Source: Candidatus Methylomirabilota bacterium (GTDB lineage: Bacteria > Verrucomicrobiota > Verrucomicrobiia > Limisphaerales > UBA11358). From it: DNA of 64,000 nt. The stretch covers positions 463 through 64,462 of the forward strand of contig DASQOZ010000070.1 in assembly GCA_035644195.1 (NCBI GenBank), in the 5' to 3' direction. Below the pieces are notes generated by a model. It searched no databases. It saw only the letters and a list, made by a program, of their open reading frames with translations, and had not been told where the DNA came from. Numbering within the stretch: position 1 is the stretch's first letter; each line of letters opens with the position of its first letter. Positions 3,678 to 59,991 of the stretch are shown piece by piece. The translations under genes were made by a program, and so were the position numbers.

Positions 3678-4790
3678 ATGAACGAACACGACCATCACGA
3701 TCACGAGCATCCGCACTTGCCGAGCCAAAGCAATGCGACGGCTGGCGTGCCGGAAACGCAGGACGCCGGCACGCAGGCGCTGGCCGAGGCGTTGCGCAGC
3801 AGTTTTTTCATCGTCAAAATTGTGATGGCGCTGATGGTCGTCGCATTTTTCAGTTCGGGATTTTTCACCGTCGGCCCGCAGGAAAAAGCCGTCATACTCC
3901 GTTTCGGCAAACCCGTCGGCGAGGGCGAAAAGATTTTGCTCAACGCCGGGTTGCACTGGTCGTTTCCGTATCCGGTTGATGAAGTCGTGAAAATTCCGAT
4001 CACGGAACAGCAAACGCTCCAATCCACCGTCGGCTGGTATTTCACGACGCCCGAACAGGAATTGAGCGGCGAGGAAATTCCCGCCGGCCAGTCGCTCGAT
4101 CCGGCGCGCGACGGCTTTGCCATCACCGCCGACCGCAACATCATTCACACAAAAGCTACGCTGCATTATCACATCGAAGACCCGATTCGATATGTGTTCG
4201 GCTTTTTGTCCGCATCCAACACGATTCAAAATGCGTTGAATGAGTCGGTGCTTTACACCGCCGCGCATTTCAAGGTGGACGACGCGCTTTATGCCGACCA
4301 AGCCGGATTTCAGGATGCCGTGCGCATTCGCGTCGGCAATTTGACCGATGCGGAAAAGCTCGGCATCGTCATTGACAATTGCAACGTGCAAAATATTCCG
4401 CCGCGTCAATTGAAAGACGTTTTCGCGCAAGTCATTGAGTCACGCGAAAATCGCACCAAGACAATGACCGAGGCCAGAAGCGCGGCGGACAAAATTTTGC
4501 GCAATGCCGATGCGCAATCCAAAAGCATCGAGAATCTGGCAGAATCGGCGCGAACGAATTATGTCTCGCTCGTCAACGCCGACGCGAAACGATTCAGCGA
4601 ATTGCTGCCGCAATACCGGACCAACTCTGCCTTGGTCGCGCAACAAATGCTCATGCCCGCGCTCGGCAACGTGATGACCAATGTGCAGGACAAAATCTTT
4701 TTGCCGCAACGCGCCGATGGCAAACCGCGCGAACTTCGGTTAATGTTAAATCGCGAACCGCCTCAGCCGAAAAATGCGGCGAGCCAGTAA
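3678..4790 (+). CDS. SPFH/band-7 family protein (HflK-like) with His-rich N-terminus
   Basis: I prefer the ATG at 3678 over the track TTG at 3675. N-terminus is MNEHDHHDHEHPH, followed by a TM helix and the SPFH core GPQEKAVILRFGKPV. Confidence 0.6.
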   Translation: MNEHDHHDHEHPHLPSQSNATAGVPETQDAGTQALAEALRSSFFIVKIVMALMVVAFFSSGFFTVGPQEKAVILRFGKPVGEGEKILLNAGLHWSFPYPVDEVVKIPITEQQTLQSTVGWYFTTPEQELSGEEIPAGQSLDPARDGFAITADRNIIHTKATLHYHIEDPIRYVFGFLSASNTIQNALNESVLYTAAHFKVDDALYADQAGFQDAVRIRVGNLTDAEKLGIVIDNCNVQNIPPRQLKDVFAQVIESRENRTKTMTEARSAADKILRNADAQSKSIENLAESARTNYVSLVNADAKRFSELLPQYRTNSALVAQQMLMPALGNVMTNVQDKIFLPQRADGKPRELRLMLNREPPQPKNAASQ

Positions 4791-4822
4791 ATGAAAAATT
4801 TAATCTTGAACGCGATAGCGTC

Positions 4823-4897
4823 TTGGAGTGCGGCAGCCTTCTGCCGCTTTCGATCGGCAAACCGGTTTGAAAGCGCCAGAGGACTGGCGCAGTCCAA
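4823..4897. repeat. Double-hairpin REP-like element
   Basis: Two 7-bp stem / 4-nt loop hairpins: gcggcag-cctt-ctgccgc (4830-4847) and gcgccag-agga-ctggcgc (4873-4890). They are enclosed by pairing termini ttggagt...agtccaa. Intergenic, just after the SPFH operon. Confidence 0.6.
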
Positions 4898-4925
4898 AAA
4901 CCTGTCGGCAAATCTGTAATTAAAA

Positions 4926-5330
4926 ATGGACGCGATGCAAAAAAAGAAAATGTGGAAAGTGGCGGCGATACATTTGTTGCTTTCTCTACTTGCGATTTTT
5001 GGCGTTTTTTATTTCTTTTTTTTCTTGGGTGATTTTTTATATCTCCCCGTCACATTCTGGAGTAAGATGTGCATGTGGCTTCAACCTTTTTTCTGCCAAT
5101 TGTTCTTTTTCTTTCTAAAGGCTGATGCGGAAAATCTGGAAATTTCTTTGCTTATACAAATTCCACTGTATCTGTTTTGTATTTTAATTTGGAGCTTTTG
5201 TGTTGGTTGGCTTTATACAAAATTAGTTAGTTTGCTCAACCGTGATTCAATTCTCGGCAGAAAAGTTTTTTCAAATCGTAAATCGCAAATCATAAATCGT
5301 AAATTTCTATGCAAGTCACTTCACTTTTAA
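4926..5330 (+). CDS. Hypothetical small membrane protein (AT-rich)
   Basis: 134-aa ORF that is very hydrophobic and Phe/Leu-rich, with lower GC than its neighbours. Its 3' end runs through a heptamer repeat and overlaps the ATPase start. I recognise no family. Confidence 0.3.
   Translation: MDAMQKKKMWKVAAIHLLLSLLAIFGVFYFFFFLGDFLYLPVTFWSKMCMWLQPFFCQLFFFFLKADAENLEISLLIQIPLYLFCILIWSFCVGWLYTKLVSLLNRDSILGRKVFSNRKSQIINRKFLCKSLHF
5273..5304. repeat. Heptanucleotide tandem repeat (AAATCGT-like, about 4.5 units)
   Basis: aaatcgt aaatcgc aaatcat aaatcgt aaat, ending 5 nt before the ATPase ATG at 5309. Confidence 0.8.
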
Positions 5331-9039: not shown

Positions 9040-9102
9040 CCGCAGAGTCGCCGAGACGCAGAGAATTTCAATTTTCAACTCTGCGCCTCCGCGTCTCTGC
9101 GG
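9040..9102. repeat. Imperfect palindromic element (CCGCAGAG...CTCTGCGG)
   Basis: The arms ccgcagagtcgccgagacgcagag and ctctgcgcctccgcgtctctgcgg flank an AT loop. Located between the ABC ATPase and permease genes. Confidence 0.6.
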
Positions 9103-12063: not shown

Positions 12064-12069
12064 TTTCAT

Positions 12070-12126
12070 GGGAGGGTCGCCGTGTCGACGACCCAAATTT
12101 TGGGACGGCGACACGCCGTCCCTCCC
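12070..12126. repeat. GGGAGGG...CCCTCCC palindromic element
   Basis: gggagggtcgccgtgtcgacgaccc aaatttt gggacggcgacacgccgtccctccc. The termini pair, and each arm contains its own hairpin with a tgtc or acac loop. Confidence 0.7.
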
Positions 12127-12173
12127 ATTCACAAGATTGCTTCACGACAAATCCCTGCTAATCTTTTCGTTCC

Positions 12174-13907
12174 GTGACCAAAGGAAAAAAATCTAAAAAT
12201 CGTCCCTTGCGCGTTGGTTTGATTTCACTCGGCTGCGCGAAAAATCTCGTGGACGCCGAGGTCATGCTCGGCTCGCTGATGAAAAGTGGAGTCGAAATCA
12301 CCAACGACGCCGCGCAGGCCGACGCGCTCATCGTCAACACCTGCTCCTTCATTGACTCCGCGCAGGAAGAAAGCGTGGACACGATTCTTGAATCCGTCGA
12401 ACTGCGCGATGCGAACCGGCGCGGCCAGGCCGTCATCGTTTCCGGCTGCCTCTCGCAGCGTTTCCGCGAGGAACTTCCAAAATTATTGCCTGAAGTGGAT
12501 GCGTTCATGGGCATTGACCAGGTCGCGCGAGTCGGCGACATCGTCGGCAAAGCCATTGCCAGCCGTGCGGAAAAAAATGGGAATGAAAAATTAAAAATTA
12601 AAAATTCAAAAACGAAAATTTCCGCGCGCCTGAACGAACTGGAAAAGAACCGCGACCTTTCCGCCCGCGAAAAAGAAGAATCTTTGCGCGGCACGGACAA
12701 ATTTGGCAAAACCAAAACCGTCGTAGCGGCGTCTCGGGAGAGCGCCGCCAATTTATCTTTGGCGGAAGGAACGGCGGCGTTCTCCCGAAACGCCGCTACG
12801 ATCTTCGATGTCACTTCGCGCCCCGTCTTCATTCCCGATTTCGAGACGCCGCGCTTCCGGCTGACGCCGAAACATTTTGCCTATCTGAAGATCGCCGAGG
12901 GTTGCAACCATCCGTGCAGCTTCTGCATCATTCCACGCATGCGCGGCTCGCACCGCAGCCGCACGCAAAAAGACATTGTGGCTGAAGCGAAGGCATTGAT
13001 CGCCGACGGCGTGAAGGAGATCAATTTAATTTCGCAGGACTCGACTTATTACGGATTGGATTTGCGTCCGAACCATTCGCGAGCGATTTCTTCGCCTGAA
13101 AAATTTTCCGCCGCCGCAAAATCGCTCGCCGCCGATGCCACGACCATTTGTTCGCTACTCCGAGAACTGAATTCGATCAAAGGCGATTTCTGGATTCGCC
13201 TGCTCTACACGCATCCGGCGCACTGGACGGACGAATTGATTCAGACAATCGCCGATTGCAAAAAAGTCGCGCGCTACGTTGACATTCCGCTGCAACACAT
13301 CCACGAGAATATGCTCGAACGGATGCGCCGCGAAACATCGCAGCAATACATCGTTGATTTGATTCAGAAAATCCGCGCCGGAATTCCGGGAATTGCGTTA
13401 CGGACGACCTTCATCGTCGGTTTTCCGGGCGAAACGGAAAGCAGTTTTGAAACGCTGCTTGATTTTGTCCGTGAAACGAAATTCGAACGGCTCGGTGTGT
13501 TCACTTATTCGCAGGAAGACGGCACGCTCGCTGGAAAAATGGCCGGACAAATTCCCGACAAGGTCAAACAGAAGCGCCGCGAACTCGTTATGGCCGCGCA
13601 ACACAAGATCGCCCGGCAAGTTTCAGAGAATTTTGTTGGCCGCGAAATCAAAGTCCTCGTCGAAGGCCAGGCGAATGAAAAGCAGCTTCAACAGGCGAAC
13701 GTCAGTTCGTGGGAACACGGCTTGATTCGCGAAGCAGAAACTTCAAAACTTCAAATTCAAAATTATCTCATTGCTCGCGGCGAAGCCGACGCGCCGGACA
13801 TTGACGGTCGCATTTACATTCGCGGCAGATTGCCAATCGGCGAATTTGCCAAAGTCAAAATTATCGGCCACACGGATTACGATTTGATTGCCGAGCCGGT
13901 GGCGTGA
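12174..13907 (+). CDS. rimO: Ribosomal protein S12 methylthiotransferase RimO (with about 100-aa repeat-derived linker insertion)
   Basis: GTG start. MTTase N-domain LRVGLISLGCAKNLVDAEVM, radical-SAM motif EGCNHPCSFCIIP and a C-terminal TRAM-like region. The linker between the domains is far longer than in canonical RimO. Confidence 0.85.
   Translation: MTKGKKSKNRPLRVGLISLGCAKNLVDAEVMLGSLMKSGVEITNDAAQADALIVNTCSFIDSAQEESVDTILESVELRDANRRGQAVIVSGCLSQRFREELPKLLPEVDAFMGIDQVARVGDIVGKAIASRAEKNGNEKLKIKNSKTKISARLNELEKNRDLSAREKEESLRGTDKFGKTKTVVAASRESAANLSLAEGTAAFSRNAATIFDVTSRPVFIPDFETPRFRLTPKHFAYLKIAEGCNHPCSFCIIPRMRGSHRSRTQKDIVAEAKALIADGVKEINLISQDSTYYGLDLRPNHSRAISSPEKFSAAAKSLAADATTICSLLRELNSIKGDFWIRLLYTHPAHWTDELIQTIADCKKVARYVDIPLQHIHENMLERMRRETSQQYIVDLIQKIRAGIPGIALRTTFIVGFPGETESSFETLLDFVRETKFERLGVFTYSQEDGTLAGKMAGQIPDKVKQKRRELVMAAQHKIARQVSENFVGREIKVLVEGQANEKQLQQANVSSWEHGLIREAETSKLQIQNYLIARGEADAPDIDGRIYIRGRLPIGEFAKVKIIGHTDYDLIAEPVA
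12586..12620. repeat. Heptanucleotide tandem repeat (AAAAATT-like, 5 units) inside rimO
   Basis: aaaaatt aaaaatt aaaaatt caaaaac gaaaatt, read in-frame as KLKIKNSKTKI. Confidence 0.8.
12723..12799. repeat. GTAG...CTAC palindromic element (copy E), in-frame inside rimO
   Basis: The left arm gtagcggcgtctcgggagagcgccgcc pairs with the right arm ggcggcgttctcccgaaacgccgctac. Translated as VVAASRESAANLSLAEGTAAFSRNAATI. Confidence 0.75.
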
Positions 13908-13908
13908 T

Positions 13909-13972
13909 GGGAGGGACGGCGTGTCGCCGTCCTTGACTAAATAAAATGGGACGCCGACACGGCGTCCCTCCC
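13909..13972. repeat. GGGAGGG...CCCTCCC palindromic element (likely also rimO terminator)
   Basis: gggagggacggcgtgtcgccgtcc ...loop... gggacgccgacacggcgtccctccc, beginning 2 nt after the rimO stop. Same family as 12070-12126. Confidence 0.7.
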
Positions 13973-14021
13973 AAAGTTTTCTCTTGGTGTTCTTGGTGCC
14001 TTGGTGGTTCAATTCTTGGAA

Positions 14022-15735: not shown

Positions 15736-16500
15736 ATGTCCACCCTCATTTGCTTCGCCCTGAAAGAAGAAGCCGCGCCGTTTCGGAAAATCGCGGCGGG
15801 TATCAGCTTGCGCCGCGACCACCATGTTTCAATTTTGCTCACCGGCATCGGCCGCCAGAACGCCGAAAAATCCCTGCGCGAATTTCTGAATTCTTGTAGG
15901 AGTCGAGGTAACCAGACTCAAATTAAAGAAGAGTTAGAGACTCCTCACGTCGTCTCCTACAAACCGGATTTGGTGCTGACCTGCGGTTTCGCCGGCGGAC
16001 TGAATCCAGAATTGAAACTCGGCGACGTGATTTTTGAAATTTTCCCCAGTAGCAGCCGACGTGAGTCGGCTCAAACTGAAACCGGAAATCAATCAGAGCC
16101 GATTGACATCGGCTGCTACGATAAATTGATTGCCGCCGGCGCAAAGCCCGCAAAAATTTTCTGCGCCGACCGCATCGCCACGACCGTCGCCGAAAAGAAA
16201 AAATTGCGCGACGAAACCGGCGCTGATGCCGTCGAAATGGAATCGGCGGCGATCCACGTCGTCTGCCGCGAACGCGGCATTCCCTGCGCCACCGTCCGCG
16301 TGATCTCCGACACGGCCAATGAAGATTTGCCGCTGGATTTCAACACGCTTTCCAAGCCGGACAAGAATCTGGATTTTGGAAAATTATTCCTGGCCATCGC
16401 CAAATCGCCCGGAAAAATTCCCGCGTTGATGCAGTTGCAGAAGAAAACCAAATTCGCGGCGGAGCAACTGGCGGCGGTTTTGGAGAAAATAATCCGGTAG
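15736..16500 (+). CDS. PNP/UDP-1 family nucleosidase (MTA/SAH nucleosidase or HpnG-like) carrying two in-frame repeat insertions
   Basis: LLTGIGRQNA, CGFAGGLNP and DAVEMESAAI are typical of MtnN/HpnG-type phosphorylases. It lies convergent to the hopanoid-type genes. Confidence 0.6.
   Translation: MSTLICFALKEEAAPFRKIAAGISLRRDHHVSILLTGIGRQNAEKSLREFLNSCRSRGNQTQIKEELETPHVVSYKPDLVLTCGFAGGLNPELKLGDVIFEIFPSSSRRESAQTETGNQSEPIDIGCYDKLIAAGAKPAKIFCADRIATTVAEKKKLRDETGADAVEMESAAIHVVCRERGIPCATVRVISDTANEDLPLDFNTLSKPDKNLDFGKLFLAIAKSPGKIPALMQLQKKTKFAAEQLAAVLEKIIR
15895..15961. repeat. GTAG...CTAC palindromic element (copy A), in-frame in nucleosidase CDS
   Basis: tgtaggagtcgaggtaaccagactc ...aaattaaagaagagtta... 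gagactcctcacgtcgtctcctaca, translated CRSRGNQTQIKEELETPHVVSY. Confidence 0.8.
16049..16119. repeat. GTAG...CTAC palindromic element (copy B), in-frame in nucleosidase CDS
   Basis: gtagcagccgacgtgagtcggctc ...loop... gagccgattgacatcggctgctac, translated SSSRRESAQTETGNQSEPIDIGCY. Confidence 0.8.
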
Positions 16501-16552
16501 GGCCGCGTTGCCGCGCGGTCCAAATTTGGGCGGTGCAGCAGCACCGCCCTAC
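16497..16552. repeat. GTAG...CTAC element (copy F) between convergent genes; probable bidirectional terminator
   Basis: gtagggccgcgttgccgcgcggtcc aaatttg ggcggtgcagcagcaccgccctac. The termini pair and each arm has its own hairpin. The terminal TAG and CTA triplets are the stop codons of both flanking genes. Confidence 0.7.
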
Positions 16553-16974
16553 CGTTGAATCGAATTGGTTTCTGCTGGCGGCGCGGGTTTTTCTTTCGTG
16601 TGTTCGCTGTAGCTGATGAATCCCGCGCCGATGACGATGAGAATCACGCCAACCCAGCGCCACAGCGAAACTTGTTCGTTCAAAAACCACATCGCGGCAA
16701 ACGTGGCGAAGACAAAACTCAATGCGGTCAGCGGCCAGAGAAAACTGATTTCGCTCTCGGACATCAAAATCAGCAGGCAGCCGAAAAACAACGCCTGAAA
16801 AAACATTCCCAGCCAGATGAAATAATTTGTGCCAGCGGCTTTAATGAAACGCGCGACGGCGGCGACACTGTTGGTTTTGGCTTCGCCGATTTGGTTCATG
16901 CCTTTTTTCAAAAACACGATGCCGGTGGATTCGAAAAAAAGTCCGATCAACAAGATGACAATTAATTTGGTCAT
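16549..16974 (-). CDS. Small DMT/EamA-like (ArnE/SMR-like) membrane transporter
   Basis: 141 aa with four hydrophobic helices. The size and pattern match small EamA-domain proteins. Its start overlaps the upstream gene by 4 nt. Confidence 0.5.
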   Translation of the reverse strand: MTKLIVILLIGLFFESTGIVFLKKGMNQIGEAKTNSVAAVARFIKAAGTNYFIWLGMFFQALFFGCLLILMSESEISFLWPLTALSFVFATFAAMWFLNEQVSLWRWVGVILIVIGAGFISYSEHTKEKPAPPAETNSIQR

Positions 16975-29202: not shown

Positions 29203-29292
29203 TGGCGGAAGGGGTGGGATTCGAACCCACGGCAGCCTTGCGACTACTCCTGATTTCGAGTCAGGTGCCTTTAACCACTCAGCCACCCTTCC
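29203..29292 (-). tRNA. tRNA-Ser (anticodon CGA), encoded CCA
   Basis: The reverse complement is GGAAGGGTGGCTGAGTGGTTAAAGGCACCTGACTCGAAATCAGGAGTAGTCGCAAGGCTGCCGTGGGTTCGAATCCCACCCCTTCCGCCA. It has a 7-bp acceptor stem, the anticodon loop CT-CGA-AA, a long variable arm and a GGTTCGAATCC T-arm. Confidence 0.9.
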
Positions 29293-32114: not shown

Positions 32115-33794
32115 TCACGAACCCATCATACTTCTCAACGGTAAAAATTCCAACTCCGCTCCCGCTTCCAACTCCGCACAATTCACCGGCACGCGAATCA
32201 GCGCGTTCGCCGCTGCGAAGCAAGTCACGTCGCCGGAACTCGACCATTTCAGCGGATGCAAATTTATTTCGCCGTTCAAAAACTCCAACCGTGCCGGCCA
32301 GAGCGTTTCGCGCGGACACGGCTTGTCGTCCAATTTTGTGGCGAGCCTGCCACGCATAAATTTTGGCGCAATTTCGCCGGTCAGTTTCGCGAGCGCCGTG
32401 GCGACGGCGAAATGAAAACAGACAAAATGCGAGAGCGGGTTGCCCGGCAAACCAAACGCCACGCGCGAACCGTTCACGCCGAAGATGAGCGGCTTGCCAG
32501 GACGCACGTTGACTTGTGAAAAAGCGGTTTCAAAACCGAGCCGTTCCAGCAGCGGACGCGTGAAATCTTTGTCGCCGACACTCGCTCCTCCGGAAATCAA
32601 AATCAAATCCGCCGCCGCGATGCGGTTCAAATCAAGTTGCGCCCACGCCGCCTCAAAATTTTCCGGCAGATGTTTCTGGTCCAAGTCACACGAAAAGTTT
32701 TGCAACAGGCCGCGAATCAAAATCGAATTGCTGTCGCGGATTTGCCCCGGCTCCGGCGTTTGATCAGGCGGAATAATCTCATCGCCCGTCGTGAAGTGTG
32801 CCACGCGCAATCGTGGACTCACCAGCGGCTGCGTGCAGCCCGCCGTCGCCAGCAACGCGAGTTTGCCCGCGTCCAGCCGCACGCCGGATTTCATGAGCGG
32901 CTGTCCAGCCTTCACATCTTCGCCGCGCTTGCGGAGGCTTGATCCACTTTCGAGTTTTGTGATTTTAATTTTGTCGCCGTTGCGCTCGACGTGTTCCTGC
33001 ATTACTACGCGCACACCGTCGCACGGCAACGCCGCGCCCGTCGCCACGCGCACCGCTTCACCGCGCCGGAGCAGGCGCGGTTTCCAATCCGCCGCGTGGA
33101 TCGTGTCCACGATTTGAAAATTGTCGGACGCATCATCGGCCAGAATTGCGTAACCATCGCGCGTGGAGCGGTCATTCGGCGGCAAATCTTCCGGCGCGCA
33201 AACCGTTTCGCGCAGCACGCGGCCAAAAGATTCTTCCAGCGGAACGCGAACCGGCGGCAACGGCTGGCAGCTCGAACTGATTTCCGAAATAGCTTCGTCC
33301 AACGATTTGTAGGAGACGACGTGAGGGGTCTCTGATTTTTTTGAAGTGAGACTCGTCACCTCGTCTCCTACAAAATCAATTGGCAACGCGCGTCGTTTCC
33401 AGATCGGCACGTCGCGTTTGAGGCCATCCATGAATTCGCCGGTCAACGCGATGGCTTCCGCGCGATGCCTGGCGGCGACGCCAAGATAAATTGCCGTTTC
33501 GCCGACGGGAATGATTCCGACGCGATGAATCACTTTGGCGGCGAGACACGGATGCCGCGTGGAAATGTCCTGAATCAGCCGCCGGATTTCGCGCGCGGCC
33601 ATTTCAGGATAGGCTTCATATTCAAGCGCGGAAATTGTTCCGCCATTTTCTTCATCACGGACCAAGCCGCGAAATTCAATCCACGCACCAAGCGCGGTCT
33701 TTGCAGACGGCCACCATTGCGGCGGAGAAATTTTTTCCGCAATCGGTCCTTTCGTGAGTTGAATTTCAATTTCCATGCGACAAAATAATTTCAT
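32115..33794 (-). CDS. MoaE-MoeA fusion protein (molybdopterin synthase catalytic subunit + molybdopterin molybdenumtransferase)
   Basis: The N-terminal roughly 145 aa are MoaE-like (EYEAYPEMA...DVPIWKR). The rest is MoeA-like (SLDEAI...RSTRDGYAI...SGGASVGDKD). The joint is the repeat-encoded DFVGDEVTSLTSKKSETPHVVSYK. Confidence 0.85.
   Translation of the reverse strand: MKLFCRMEIEIQLTKGPIAEKISPPQWWPSAKTALGAWIEFRGLVRDEENGGTISALEYEAYPEMAAREIRRLIQDISTRHPCLAAKVIHRVGIIPVGETAIYLGVAARHRAEAIALTGEFMDGLKRDVPIWKRRALPIDFVGDEVTSLTSKKSETPHVVSYKSLDEAISEISSSCQPLPPVRVPLEESFGRVLRETVCAPEDLPPNDRSTRDGYAILADDASDNFQIVDTIHAADWKPRLLRRGEAVRVATGAALPCDGVRVVMQEHVERNGDKIKITKLESGSSLRKRGEDVKAGQPLMKSGVRLDAGKLALLATAGCTQPLVSPRLRVAHFTTGDEIIPPDQTPEPGQIRDSNSILIRGLLQNFSCDLDQKHLPENFEAAWAQLDLNRIAAADLILISGGASVGDKDFTRPLLERLGFETAFSQVNVRPGKPLIFGVNGSRVAFGLPGNPLSHFVCFHFAVATALAKLTGEIAPKFMRGRLATKLDDKPCPRETLWPARLEFLNGEINLHPLKWSSSGDVTCFAAANALIRVPVNCAELEAGAELEFLPLRSMMGS
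33308..33372. repeat. GTAG...CTAC palindromic element (copy C) at the moaE/moeA joint
   Basis: tgtaggagacgacgtgaggggtctc tgatttttttgaagt gagactcgtcacctcgtctcctaca. The arm sequences are closest to copy A. Confidence 0.8.
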
Positions 33795-52520: not shown

Positions 52521-52531
52521 TTTTATAAAAT

Positions 52532-52603
52532 TGTAGCAGCGGACGTCAGTCCGCTCTGATTTATCTTAAAAAAGAAATGAGCCGGCTCACGTCGGCTGCT
52601 ACA
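52532..52603. repeat. GTAG...CTAC palindromic element (copy D), intergenic
   Basis: tgtagcagcggacgtcagtccgctc ...tgatttatcttaaaaaagaaat... gagccggctcacgtcggctgctaca. Confidence 0.8.
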
Positions 52604-52645
52604 ATTATCCTCGACAATAGCCTGAATTCAGCCTACATTTAGTCT

Positions 52646-56298: not shown

Positions 56299-56304
56299 AA
56301 TAAT

Positions 56305-56937
56305 TTAAGCAGATGGTTGCGATTGTTCGTCAGAAGAAGATGGAAGTTTAGGCTGTTCCGGTGTTTGACTTTCAACAACTTCACGCAAGCAGGGCAAATT
56401 GGAATCATACACTTCATCTACTGCACCAAGCCAATATGCATCAATTGAACTCAACGGATTTTCATCTTCCTGCAAACCTTTCCGCTCGTGGTTTTGGAAG
56501 ATAAAAAGTCATAGATGAATTCGCCACAACGCACGACGCCTCCGTTGCTGTTAATAAAAACTGTGATTGGATTTTCTCCAGGAGAACGGAGCTTCAAAAT
56601 TTCTACAGCTAATTTCCCTACTAAATCATCAGTGAGGTCGCCGAAGATTTGAACTGAGCGATTTATGTCCGCTCTGAAATTAGGATCAATCGTTGCCACA
56701 ATCTGACGTTTCTCCGCATTTAGCGACCGCTTTGAATTTTCTTCCAATCAATTTGTCGGTCTCATAAACGTCAGAACCAAACTCATTTTTTTCGCGGCGA
56801 AGTCGCTCAAAGAAACCGCCCAAGCCGCCTTCGACGCCGTTGTAAATAAGTTTGAGACGCCGCGCAATTGTCTCGTCGGCGTCCGACTGATCCCGAACTG
56901 TCAATGGAGGAGTTTCCATATCAAAAGGGTAAGACAA
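56305..56937 (-). pseudogene. Decayed ClpP-fold (S14-like) serine protease gene
   Basis: Three minus-strand pieces lie in different frames. The middle piece has ENPITVFINSNGGVVRCGEFIYDFL (compare ClpP INSPGG..AIYD). The last piece (56305-56472) reads SIDAYWLGAVDEVYD. The catalytic Ser/His region is missing. AT-rich. Confidence 0.45.
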
Positions 56938-57030
56938 ATTTTGTCCTATTCAAATAAAATTTTAACGAAAAATGTGACGTAGCAGAAGTTGAAAAATATC
57001 CGTTGATTTAGGTCAGGATGACCCGGAATT

Positions 57031-57273
57031 TCATTTCGCCTTGCGTCCGCGACGCGCGCGATAAGTCGTCAAAGTGGAGAATTGACCGGAGGCGATTTCC
57101 GAATGTGCGTGGTCATGCAAAGCGTCGTAAGCGCGTTTGTGACGACTTTTCACTTTTCGCACCGCTTGAGCTACAATGGTTTCATCAACCGTTGTAATTT
57201 CAGGCAGCTTACTTCCTGAAAGAATCAGCGAGCGAACACGAGACGAAGTTATTGTGCGGCTTTTTCGCATCAC
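57031..57273 (-). CDS. Hypothetical small basic protein
   Basis: 80-aa ORF in the AT-rich islet. I recognise no family. It may be a remnant. Confidence 0.2.
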   Translation of the reverse strand: MMRKSRTITSSRVRSLILSGSKLPEITTVDETIVAQAVRKVKSRHKRAYDALHDHAHSEIASGQFSTLTTYRARRGRKAK

Positions 57274-57313
57274 GCAATGAGCCTAATCTTACTCTAAAGG
57301 GAATCAATGTTTT

Positions 57314-58837
57314 TCACTCCAAAATTTGCCGTAGCAAAATTTGAAAAACTTCCGTTGATTCAATTTCTTTCACGCCCAAAAATTCTGGCCTTTCACTGAT
57401 GATGACCGGCCAATCGCGTTTGTCCGCCGGACGCCGTCCGTGCGAACCTTTCACCAGCGTCGCGTCGAGCGGAATCACGTCCATCAACATCCGCAGGCCG
57501 AGTTTCTTTTGCAGCAGCCGCCACGCGATTTTTAATTTCGGCAGCGGAATCTTCGGGTCGAGAAACAATTCCACCGGGTCGTAGCCGGGTTTGCGATGGA
57601 TGTCCACCGTCCGCGCAAAATCCGGCGCGCGCGCGTCGTCGAGCCAGTAATAATAAGTGAACCACGCGTTCTCCGGCGCGACGGCGATTAAATCTCCGGC
57701 GCGCGGATGGCCAATGCCCGCTTCGGCCTTTTCCTTTGCACCGAGGACGGTCACGTCCACCTCGACCTGTTTCTCCAGCACGTCGCGCACTTTCGATTCG
57801 AGCGAGCGGTCGTTCAAATAAATGTGCGCGACTTGATGATCGGCCACGGCAAAAACTTTGCTCGCGCCCGCGTCGAGAATTTCCATGCCGAGTTCGTCTT
57901 TGATTGCAAGCCAGCCTTTTTGCCGGAACAAACGGTTCAAATGAATCGGCGCGTCCACGTTCGTGATGCCGTATTCGGAAAGCAAAACGATTTTCACGCC
58001 GCGCGCGCTGAAATATTTGATGAGGTCGCCGACGATAGAATCAATCGCCTGCAAATCGGGAATGATTTTGGGATTGGTGGAACAAGCGTCCCGCTTGTTG
58101 AATTCGGCGTCTCGCCGAATTTTATTTCCGGAAGAATTTTCCGGCGGGACGCCGGAATGAACAGGCGAGACGCCTGTGCCACCCACATAAACGCCATGCC
58201 GCTGCAAATTGTAATCCAAATGCGGCAAATAAATCAGGTTCAGCGGCGGCGCGTATTTATTTTCAATCCACTTCGCCGATTCCGCAATCCAGCGCGTCGC
58301 GCAATCAGCAGAGCCTTGCAACGTTTTGATTCCCGCCGCTGGTCCCCAAAATCCGAAGAACGGAAATTCGCCCAAATCTTTTTTGATTTCTTCGCGGATG
58401 GAATATGGCCATGAATAAATGTCGAAAACTTTTCCGCCGTCGGCCTTGTAAATCGGGCGCGGCGTGATGGAATAATCCGCGCTCGAATACATGTTGAACC
58501 ACCAAAACACATTTGCGATTGATGATTTACGATTTACGATTTCAGATTGTTTTCGGAGTGCGTCCCAGATTTTTTTGCCGTGAACGATGTGATTCGATTG
58601 TTTCCAAAATTGAACTTCAGACAATTCACGATTATGCCAGCCGTTGCCGACGATGCCATGGTCGCGCGGTAATTTGCCGGTGAGATAATTCGATTGTGCC
58701 GTGCAGGTGACGGCGGGAAACGCGGGCGCGATGTGCGCGAGCGCGCCGCGTTTACGAAATTCCGCGATGCGTGGCGTATGTTCGCCGATGAGCGCTTCGG
58801 TGAGGCCGACAACGTTGATGACCGCGACACGATTCAT
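57314..58837 (-). CDS. Alkaline-phosphatase-superfamily nucleotide pyrophosphatase/phosphodiesterase (EboF-like)
   Basis: N-terminus VINVVGLT...AFPAVTCTAQSNYLTGKLPRDHGIVGNGW (metal/Thr nucleophile region). An ATGA overlap joins it to the upstream DHQS-like gene. It carries two repeat-derived in-frame inserts. Confidence 0.7.
   Translation of the reverse strand: MNRVAVINVVGLTEALIGEHTPRIAEFRKRGALAHIAPAFPAVTCTAQSNYLTGKLPRDHGIVGNGWHNRELSEVQFWKQSNHIVHGKKIWDALRKQSEIVNRKSSIANVFWWFNMYSSADYSITPRPIYKADGGKVFDIYSWPYSIREEIKKDLGEFPFFGFWGPAAGIKTLQGSADCATRWIAESAKWIENKYAPPLNLIYLPHLDYNLQRHGVYVGGTGVSPVHSGVPPENSSGNKIRRDAEFNKRDACSTNPKIIPDLQAIDSIVGDLIKYFSARGVKIVLLSEYGITNVDAPIHLNRLFRQKGWLAIKDELGMEILDAGASKVFAVADHQVAHIYLNDRSLESKVRDVLEKQVEVDVTVLGAKEKAEAGIGHPRAGDLIAVAPENAWFTYYYWLDDARAPDFARTVDIHRKPGYDPVELFLDPKIPLPKLKIAWRLLQKKLGLRMLMDVIPLDATLVKGSHGRRPADKRDWPVIISERPEFLGVKEIESTEVFQILLRQILE
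58081..58177. repeat. Composite of four consecutive short hairpins, in-frame inside phosphodiesterase CDS
   Basis: aacaagcgtcccgcttgtt, aattcggcgtctcgccgaatt, ttccggcgggacgccggaa and acaggcgagacgcctgt. The stems are 7-8 bp and the loop cores GTCCC/GGGAC and GTCTC/GAGAC are mutual reverse complements. Confidence 0.75.
58517..58551. repeat. Heptanucleotide tandem repeat (GATTTAC-like x5 = reverse complement of the 5273 unit) inside CDS
   Basis: gattgat gatttac gatttac gatttca gattgtt, read on the minus strand as QSEIVNRKSSI. Confidence 0.75.
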
Positions 58838-59991
58838 TTTTTTTCGGCGCGTTGGCGAAGTTCACCGATCGCTTCGACAATTTTATTTGCGTTCATTTCC
58901 TGAACTTCGATTCCGCGCCCGATTTCTTTCAAAAGCGTGACGGTCAGTTCGCCGCCGAGATGTTCGCGAAATTCTTCGAGGCCGTTGAGGATTTGGAAAT
59001 GGCCGCGACCGTCAACGGCCAACAATTCGTGAGCGAACAATTTGAAACCGAGTTGCTCGAGCAATTTCAAAATCCGTTCGGCGGATGGCGCGTCGAGCAG
59101 ACCGGCGTCGCGCGAGTAAATCACATCGAGAGCAACGCCGATGGCAACGGCTTCGCCGTGAGGAAGATGGAAATTGGAAAGCTGCTCCAGTTTGTGCGCC
59201 GCCCAATGGCCGAAATCCAGCGGGCGCGCCGAACCGATTTCGAACGGGTCGCCGCCCGTGGCGATGTGTTCCAAATGCAATTCGGCACAACGACGGATCA
59301 ATTGCTTCACCGTCGCCGGTTCGAATGAAATCAATTTTTCGACTTCGCGTTCGATTTCGTCGAAAAACTTTTCATCGCGGATGCAAGCGACTTTCACGGC
59401 TTCGACGTAACCGGCGCGTTTCTCTCGCGGCTTGAGCGTGGCAAGCAGATTGAAATCGTTGATGACGGCGTGCGGCGGCGCGAATGTGCCGACAAAATTC
59501 TTTTTTCCGAAGGCATTGATGCTGTTTTTCACGCCGACGCCGGAATCGGCCTGGGACAAAGTCGTCGTCGGAATGCGGACGTGCCGCACGCCGCGATGCG
59601 CGGTTGCCGCGGCAAAACCGGCGACATCGAGCAACGCGCCGCCGCCGACGGCGAGCAAATAGGATTGGCGGTCAATGTGGTAACGATCAATCTGCGACAA
59701 AATGTCGGTGACGATGGTGATGGAATTTTTCGATTGTTCGCCTCCGGCGACAAACAGCGGCGAGCGGGCAAGTTGCAATTGCTTGCCGTGGGCGGAAAAA
59801 TAATTTTCGATCTGACGTTCGAGCGTCGGCTGCGATTGGGCGAGCGCGTCTTCGAGGACAACGAGAACTTTTTTTGGCAGGCCATCGGCAAGCGCGTTTT
59901 TCAAAACCGGATTTGCCGGAGCAAAGATGTCTTCGGTGAAGAAGACGCGCAGTTGCCAGTTGACTTGGATGGAACGCCGAATCTCGGACAT
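58834..59991 (-). CDS. 3-dehydroquinate-synthase-family sugar phosphate cyclase (EboD-like)
   Basis: GGGALLDVAGFAAATAHRGVRHVRIPTTTLSQADSGVGVKNSIN and the metal-binding HGEAVAIG region. It is paired with an AP-family enzyme rather than with aro genes. Confidence 0.65.
   Translation of the reverse strand: MSEIRRSIQVNWQLRVFFTEDIFAPANPVLKNALADGLPKKVLVVLEDALAQSQPTLERQIENYFSAHGKQLQLARSPLFVAGGEQSKNSITIVTDILSQIDRYHIDRQSYLLAVGGGALLDVAGFAAATAHRGVRHVRIPTTTLSQADSGVGVKNSINAFGKKNFVGTFAPPHAVINDFNLLATLKPREKRAGYVEAVKVACIRDEKFFDEIEREVEKLISFEPATVKQLIRRCAELHLEHIATGGDPFEIGSARPLDFGHWAAHKLEQLSNFHLPHGEAVAIGVALDVIYSRDAGLLDAPSAERILKLLEQLGFKLFAHELLAVDGRGHFQILNGLEEFREHLGGELTVTLLKEIGRGIEVQEMNANKIVEAIGELRQRAEKK

Follow-up and report, generated by a model that had tools for sequence, protein, structure and literature searches.

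Intragenic four-hairpin array in a phosphodiesterase-family gene of a Limisphaerales-like genome: a probable GTAG/GTGG-headed REP dimer in a loop with many occupants

Introduction

Repetitive extragenic palindromes (REPs), small and probably selfish elements of bacterial DNA, are usually treated as extragenic. A GTAG-type REP is a palindromic unit of 20–40 nt with a stem of 5–13 bp, a small loop and a conserved 5' GTAG head. The GTAG-type REP families described by Di Nocera, De Gregorio and Rocco (2013, BMC Genomics 14:522; PMC3733652) include members with degenerate heads (GTRG), such as GTGG in Opitutus terrae, and intragenic GTAG REPs are most numerous in the O. terrae genome. Dimers of these units encode 20–30 aa, and the intragenic O. 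terrae GTAG-19 copies in Additional file 3 of that study specify the peptides GTGVSPV, GTGVPPV, GRDARAT and GTGVPPVMADQPHGRDARAT. Here we analyse a 64-kb stretch of contig DASQOZ010000070.1 (hereafter the window, 64,000 nt), in which a phosphodiesterase-family gene carries an in-frame array of four small hairpins. The O. terrae GTAG-19 peptides are translations of the outer unit of this array. We conclude that the array is very probably an intragenic copy of a GTAG/GTGG-headed REP, a head-to-head (REPIN-like) dimer that was either inserted into a permissive enzyme loop or assembled there, and that with regard to the host gene it is most probably neutral or selfish. Most REP copies in the window are intragenic, and this one loop has been reused by many families.

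Results

Four hairpins form an in-frame palindrome

The host protein is a 507-aa member of the type I phosphodiesterase/nucleotide pyrophosphatase family (alkaline-phosphatase superfamily; Pfam PF01663, E 1.4e-51). A sequence-only reading of the same DNA had placed four tandem hairpins at 58081–58177 inside its coding sequence, 57314–58837, and all four are found there. That reading gave them 4-nt loops; they are better described with 3-nt loops and one extra closing G-C pair. The features of the element are as follows.

57314–58837, minus strand: host gene
58076–58183, minus strand: whole inserted element, a 108-nt imperfect palindrome built as an inverted pair of two-hairpin arms
58077–58098, plus strand: outer REP unit 2, inverted, GTGGAACAAGCGTCCCGCTTGT, with the hairpin at 58081–58099
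58081–58099: hairpin 1, AACAAGCG-TCC-CGCTTGTT, perfect, stem 8 bp, loop 3 nt
58101–58121, plus strand: hairpin 2, AATTCGGCG-TCT-CGCCGAATT, stem 9 bp, inner and headless, partner of the hairpin at 58139–58157
58122–58138, no strand: central spacer, containing the palindrome TTCCGGAA at 58126–58133
58139–58157: hairpin 3, TTCCGGCG-GGA-CGCCGGAA, perfect, stem 8 bp, loop 3 nt; on the coding (minus) strand TTCCGGCG-TCC-CGCCGGAA, inner and headless, with a GGCGTCYCGCC core like that of the REP unit
58161–58177: hairpin 4, ACAGGCG-AGA-CGCCTGT, perfect, stem 7 bp, loop 3 nt
58161–58182, minus strand: outer REP unit 1, a GTGG head followed by the hairpin at 58161–58177, GTGGCACAGGCGTCTCGCCTGT

The higher-order palindrome foreseen from the loop sequences is present over 108 nt. 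Its arms (58076–58133 and 58126–58183) are 76% complementary, with the ends GGTGG...CCACC and TTCCGGAA at the centre. The outer units (22 nt, stems of 7–8 bp, loops of 3 nt) lie inverted with their heads outward, both outer ends being GTGG, and unit 2 differs from unit 1 by a compensated stem change from G-C to A-T. Ten bases beyond its first hairpin, each arm has another one, which lacks a head and shows the GGCGTCYCGCC core. Clusters of four perfect hairpins (stem of at least 7 bp, loop of 3 nt) within 100 nt occurred in 0 of 300 dinucleotide shuffles, in which the maximum was three, seen once; the window as a whole has 16 such hairpins against 9.1 ± 3.1 after shuffling.

The element spans exactly 36 codons, starts and ends on codon boundaries and accounts for residues 219–254 of the protein. 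Its sense frame is open and encodes GGTGVSPVHSGVPPENSSGNKIRRDAEFNKRDACST. Owing to the palindromic symmetry, an element inserted the other way round would specify a similar peptide.

The array is an insertion in a variable loop

Homologs of the host protein are abundant (8000 at E ≤ 1e-20). The top 120 share 73–82% identity, measure 472–530 aa and come from metagenome-assembled genomes (MAGs) of Limisphaerales/Verrucomicrobiia; all of their length variation falls between the conserved motifs PHLDYNLQRxG and NPxIxxDLxxIDxIVGDL. Below, L-numbers denote the DNA loci or metagenome stretches compared and P-numbers the homologous proteins.

The array is an insertion in the host gene, as the sequence-only reading held. 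The nearest homolog by tree (P0020/L203, 475 aa) reads TAC GAT GTC TCT GGC AAA TTG AAT at the site, where the window reads TAT GTG G[GTGGCAC...GTTCCAC]C AAT, with 37 codons in place of 6 unrelated ones. The loop is also short in more distant relatives: the motif-to-motif distance is 29 residues in about 40 more distant homologs from named genomes versus 66 in the window protein. Peptide and hairpins go together in the homologs compared. The peptide-bearing copies L204, L206, L211, L003 and L004 keep the hairpins, the homologs without hairpins (L203, L006, L008 and the distant ones) lack the peptide, and the pattern that would have spoken against the earlier reading, a peptide kept without hairpin potential, was not seen among them.

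No target-site duplication was found at the element flanks (TATGTGG / CAATCCC), the six codons of the empty site being replaced rather than duplicated. For lack of such a duplication we rejected an identification of the array as a miniature inverted-repeat transposable element (MITE). An assembly artefact was likewise ruled out, because the identical 507-aa protein is read on three contigs, two of which come from independent ENA and JGI assemblies.

The outer units belong to a dispersed REP family

Membership of the array in a dispersed REP family is directly visible. Outer unit 1 matches exactly a variant that recurs in metagenome contigs (for example L083, L115 and L158). We scanned metagenome contigs with the pattern GTRGCRCRGGCGTCYCGCCYGY; the counts that follow refer to units among the matches listed and are lower bounds. 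The scan returned at least 144 units in at least 120 stretches, and none of the matches listed lies in the orthologous gene. An inverted partner within 160 nt accompanies 73 of the 144 listed units, and some contigs hold several units (L158, L108, L141), with three dimers within 12 kb in L158. The two stem pairs left free in the pattern as R/Y are Watson-Crick in 136 and 138 of the 144 listed units, and the unconstrained base 23, just after the unit, is G in 127 of these 144, pairing with C5. Heads are GTGG in 108 of the units listed and GTAG in 36; GTAG heads are also carried by the orthologous copies L003 and L004.

The same family occurs in frame in unrelated genes whose products were confirmed with Pfam, namely ClpB, PBP1A, a Ser/Thr kinase, an FGE-sulfatase, a class-III aminotransferase, AlaRS, Mfd and UvrD, and it specifies the same peptides there, GTGV[SP]PV...[RQ]DA[RC]AT. 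The multi-hairpin architecture is not unique to the phosphodiesterase locus, since L164, L174 and L198, for example, also have composites in which headless hairpins follow a headed one.

Hairpins are maintained, the peptide is not

We compared 11 arms from 6 orthologous copies. Mini-hairpin cells are paired in 95.7% of cases and 7 of 17 pairs have changed on both sides, a level of pairing and covariation reached by 0 of 500 shuffles and nowhere near approached by slid controls. Where the left and right arms of one element differ, the change is compensated inside each hairpin, which is why the local stems are perfect and the long-range pairing is only 76%. The conserved unit is the small hairpin, not the long mRNA hairpin; the DNA or RNA hairpins are kept, whereas orthologs do not conserve the peptide.

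Compensatory change among orthologs would also be expected of a functional RNA element, that is, a stable mRNA structure selected for ribosome pausing between parts of the enzyme or for mRNA half-life or cleavage. Folding of the mRNA, proposed by the sequence-only reading, gave one long and very stable sense hairpin (-62.8 kcal/mol, z -7.7), and many REPs have been argued to act as RNA elements (PMC3733652). Single-stranded DNA, for its part, folds into four mini-hairpins closed by GGTGG/CCACC (z -7.3). We nevertheless regard an RNA function as very improbable. The pairing kept by covariation is that of the small unit hairpins, not of the long mRNA hairpin, close orthologs function without the insert or with unrelated palindromes of other length and stability, and the same units are found in unrelated genes and between genes. 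Rfam yielded only a sub-threshold microRNA hairpin model for the element (23 bits versus a gathering score of 86), reflecting its hairpin shape, and a scan of the host gene for intrinsic terminators found none.

Origin of the four-hairpin build

Several observations weigh against the reading of the array as a REP copy from a dispersed, transposase-mobilised family seated in a permissive loop of the enzyme. A fuzzy search of the 64-kb window, and of about 100 kb from close relatives, recovered no further copies of the REP unit. The head was included in the scan pattern, so that the scan is no independent test of head conservation. A search of the open reading frames (ORFs) of the window and 200 loci for RAYT/Y1_Tnp proteins, by HUH/Y motifs and phmmer with the L109 protein and an approximate E. 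coli RayT sequence as queries, found none in the window; it matched L109 and L051 only, and none of the close loci. Because a REPtron is present in a single copy, failing to find one within 64 kb carries little weight. The placement of the loop gains little from structure: AlphaFold2, run on an alignment of 30 close homologs, gave a mean pLDDT of 35 and did not place the loop in the fold, and a sequence search of the PDB for a solved relative returned only a marginal PafA match over 36 residues. Finally, the inner hairpins have no GTAG/GTGG head, which would allow local duplication or template switching; the four-hairpin build could for this reason be local, not a ready-made transposed unit.

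Taken further, this last point leads to an on-site origin, in which a single REP or small hairpin was expanded to four by slipped or template-switch replication, without composite transposition. The headless inner hairpins share their core with the outer ones, and no second copy of the two-hairpin arm was found in about 165 kb of local DNA. Signs of active local rearrangement are evident among the orthologs as well. In L206, hairpin 2 has undergone a loop inversion from GTCCC to GGGAC, changing SGVPPE to SGGTPE; in L004 a deletion fuses hairpins 1 and 2; and the position of the central spacer holds longer, variable and partly nested palindromic inserts, with an extra GTGG-headed palindrome in L003 and L004 and nested palindromic DNA also in L211. 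Against on-site expansion stand the exact matches of the outer units to the dispersed family and the composites of headed and headless hairpins elsewhere, and we consider it very improbable.

Many families occupy the same loop

At the same few codons, orthologs carry at least eight different inserts or unrelated peptides, or none, and most of the inserts are palindromic at the DNA level. The 120 homologs are distributed as follows.

Family A (the element in the window): 29
Family B (VGDEVTSL...EPPHVGSY): 40
Family C: 6
Family D: 4
Family E: 5
Family F: 4
Family G: 7
Family H: 3
Family I: 5
Other: 2
No insert: 15

DNA of the B, C, D, E, G, H and L009 types forms strong palindromes, several with GTAG or GTGG heads. 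The type I insert (L210 3600–3771, FGYGYPQEPEGGWPKLEGVLTELTQL) shows no palindrome at the DNA level; it is a decayed element or, alternatively, a loop extension of another kind. Insert junctions differ by a few codons between orthologs.

A neighbour-joining tree of the 120 homologs was too poorly resolved for counting insertions, and nearest neighbours were compared instead. With the site masked, the nearest neighbour carries a different insert in 66 of the 120 proteins. Neighbours at ≥98% identity share the insert and those at 90–95% often differ; the occupant switches between proteins only 5–10% diverged.

The same comparison bears on an adaptive reading, in which selection favoured the insertion as a new surface loop with a role at the protein level, for instance in an interaction or in regulation. 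The frame is kept and the peptide is common to about 29 of 120 close homologs, as such a reading would have it. At 90–95% identity, however, the peptides of orthologs at the site are unrelated or missing, a similar peptide would be read from either orientation of the palindrome, and the same peptide motifs appear in unrelated enzymes wherever a REP lands. Adaptive insertion is, in our view, scarcely credible.

Other repeats in the window

The sequence-only reading had inferred a modular repeat system with many sequence variants, and several palindromic families are indeed found in the window.

4823–4897: other-family paired hairpins, intergenic
9040–9102: other-family paired hairpins, intergenic
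12068–12128: inverted pair with TGGGAGGG heads and GTGTC/GACAC loops, intergenic, at one end of the RimO gene
12721–12801: GTAG-headed dimer, in frame in RimO (ORF 12174–13907, plus strand)
13908–13973: inverted pair of the same TGGGAGGG family, intergenic, at the other end of the RimO gene
15894–15962: GTAG-headed dimer, in frame in the PNP_UDP_1 (HpnG/MTA-nucleosidase-like) gene 15736–16500, plus strand
16049–16119: GTAG-headed dimer, in frame in the same PNP_UDP_1 gene
16495–16554: GTAG-headed dimer, intergenic
33306–33374: GTAG-headed dimer, in frame in the MoaE-MoeA linker of a fusion protein (ORF 32115–33794, minus strand), peptide FVGDEVTSLTSKKSETPHVVSYK
52529–52606: GTAG-headed dimer, intergenic

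Five of the seven GTAG-type dimers of the window are intragenic. The repeats at 4823–4897, 9040–9102, 16495–16554 and 52529–52606 represent at least three more families. The earlier claim that the building block of the array recurs at 4823–4897, 12070–12126 and 13909–13972 did not hold: paired hairpins are present there, but they belong to other families with different heads and loops, either TGGGAGGG-headed with GTGTC/GACAC loops or of the GCGGCAG/GCGCCAG type. The closest relatives in architecture are the six GTAG-headed pairs, four of them inside genes, which that reading had missed.

Two of the host genes tie in with the phosphodiesterase loop. The dimer at 33306–33374 is of family B, the one that fills that loop in 40 of 120 orthologs. 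In the PNP_UDP_1 phosphorylase-family gene the dimers occupy two sites, each of which, across 120 homologs, is either empty or occupied by various palindromic families. Because this second gene behaves likewise, reuse is a property of permissive loops in the lineage and not of the phosphodiesterase. The RimO gene probably holds more inserted material than its one dimer, given its excess length (577 aa, where the NCBIfam profile has 432 positions) and the roughly 127 residues that separate the UPF0004 domain from the radical-SAM domain.

Genomic setting

The phosphodiesterase-family gene overlaps by 4 nt the upstream 3-dehydroquinate-synthase-like (DHQS-like) gene at 58834–59991. The gene order H+-PPase, DHQS-like gene, phosphodiesterase-family gene is conserved in related loci. 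An ebo-type operon was considered for this gene pair; what is conserved is only the DHQS-like and phosphodiesterase-family pair adjoining the H+-PPase gene.

Genes for Y1_Tnp proteins are present in the clade. On the contig of P0045 (JGI 3300047160), the orthologous phosphodiesterase-family gene is directly followed, at 4597–5052 of the listed locus, by a gene for a 151-aa Y1_Tnp protein (PF01797); the corresponding spacer of the window, 56299–57313, holds no such gene. Locus L109 has a RAYT-like ORF at 2240–2806 (Y1_Tnp, 24 bits) with inverted copies of a different hairpin repeat, CTGTGCGGAAAGGCTCTGCCTTTCCGG, on both sides. This arrangement is REPtron-like, and the contig also bears the GTAG/GTGG family.

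The product of 15736–16500 is P0121 (VE344_07420), and the NCBI label of the source MAG is Methylomirabilota. Close homologs of the genes examined all come from Verrucomicrobiia/Limisphaerales MAGs, and the Methylomirabilota label of the bin therefore looks doubtful. The sole Rfam match at gathering score in the window is a tRNA gene at 29206–29292 (minus strand).

Discussion

Overall, we suggest the following course for the array. An element of the dispersed GTAG/GTGG-headed family would have entered, or been built up in, the enzyme loop between PHLDYNLQRxG and NPxIxxDLxxID, and its persistence is presumably due to its length of 36 codons, the lack of a stop in this frame and the protein's tolerance of the Gly/Ser/Pro/Arg-rich stretch encoded. 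By analogy with GTAG REPs, mobilisation would depend on a RAYT (an IS200/IS605-like Y1 HUH protein) encoded elsewhere, which would recognise single-strand hairpins with a 5' GT(A/G)G head.

The succession of occupants raises the further idea that the loop is a REP 'landing pad', at which families are replaced or lost at the same codons within about 5% protein divergence, and that this holds at every permissive loop of Limisphaerales-like genomes. We put this forward tentatively and think it rather unlikely. For the reuse of a site as such, a single precedent is mentioned in PMC3733652, where different REPs lie at nearly the same place in Xanthomonas recB. At a landing pad, incoming elements would target resident hairpins, or recombination would exchange short tracts; the reuse that we see may reflect either process or saturation by frequent insertion. 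If the idea is true, intragenic REP turnover is a regular source of diversity in loop length and sequence in the lineage's housekeeping enzymes, and loop occupants are a natural record of REP family succession. Should reuse reflect the targeting of resident hairpins, it would also inform the open question about the spread of REPs and REPINs.

For annotation, these elements explain why some proteins of Verrucomicrobia vary in length and carry odd low-complexity inserts. The recurring peptides GTGVSPV, RRDACAT, VGDEVTSL...PHVGSY and similar ones are repeat-derived and should not be taken for functional motifs.

Three known systems invite comparison. Rickettsia palindromic elements (RPEs), that is RPE-1 and its relatives, reportedly described by Ogata et al. 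in Science in 2000, are likewise palindromic repeats of about 100–150 nt that sit in frame in otherwise conserved genes, add a tolerated peptide and are absent from orthologs. Their sequence family and host lineage are unrelated to ours, RPE-1 is a single long palindrome and not a set of GTAG-headed mini-hairpins, and we know of no transposase associated with RPEs. The host here is Verrucomicrobia-like and the unit fits a GTAG-type family, so that what RPEs and the element have in common is only their behaviour, namely in-frame palindromic insertion. Bacterial MITEs (Correia/NEMIS, ERIC, Nezha) resemble the element in being short, without coding capacity of their own, inverted in symmetry, located in or near genes and prone to fold as RNA. 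The window element differs in having no target-site duplication and in ending with GT(A/G)G-headed hairpins instead of IS-type terminal inverted repeats.

The closest system is O. terrae GTAG-19. In both, a 5' GT(A/G)G head precedes a stem of 7–8 bp in a unit of about 22 nt, units form inverted dimers, in-frame intragenic copies specify the peptides GTGVSPV / RDA[CR]AT, and stem sub-families show complementary changes; both are found in the phylum Verrucomicrobia. The window element has two hairpins per arm, the inner one headless, and spans 36 codons, whereas the usual dimer encodes 20–30 aa; its host is a Limisphaerales-like MAG, not Opitutus. Intragenic GTAG-type REP dimers like those of O. 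terrae GTAG-19 are already described for Verrucomicrobia, and the window element is a further one; only its four-hairpin build and the quick replacement of one occupant of the loop by another go beyond the prior description.

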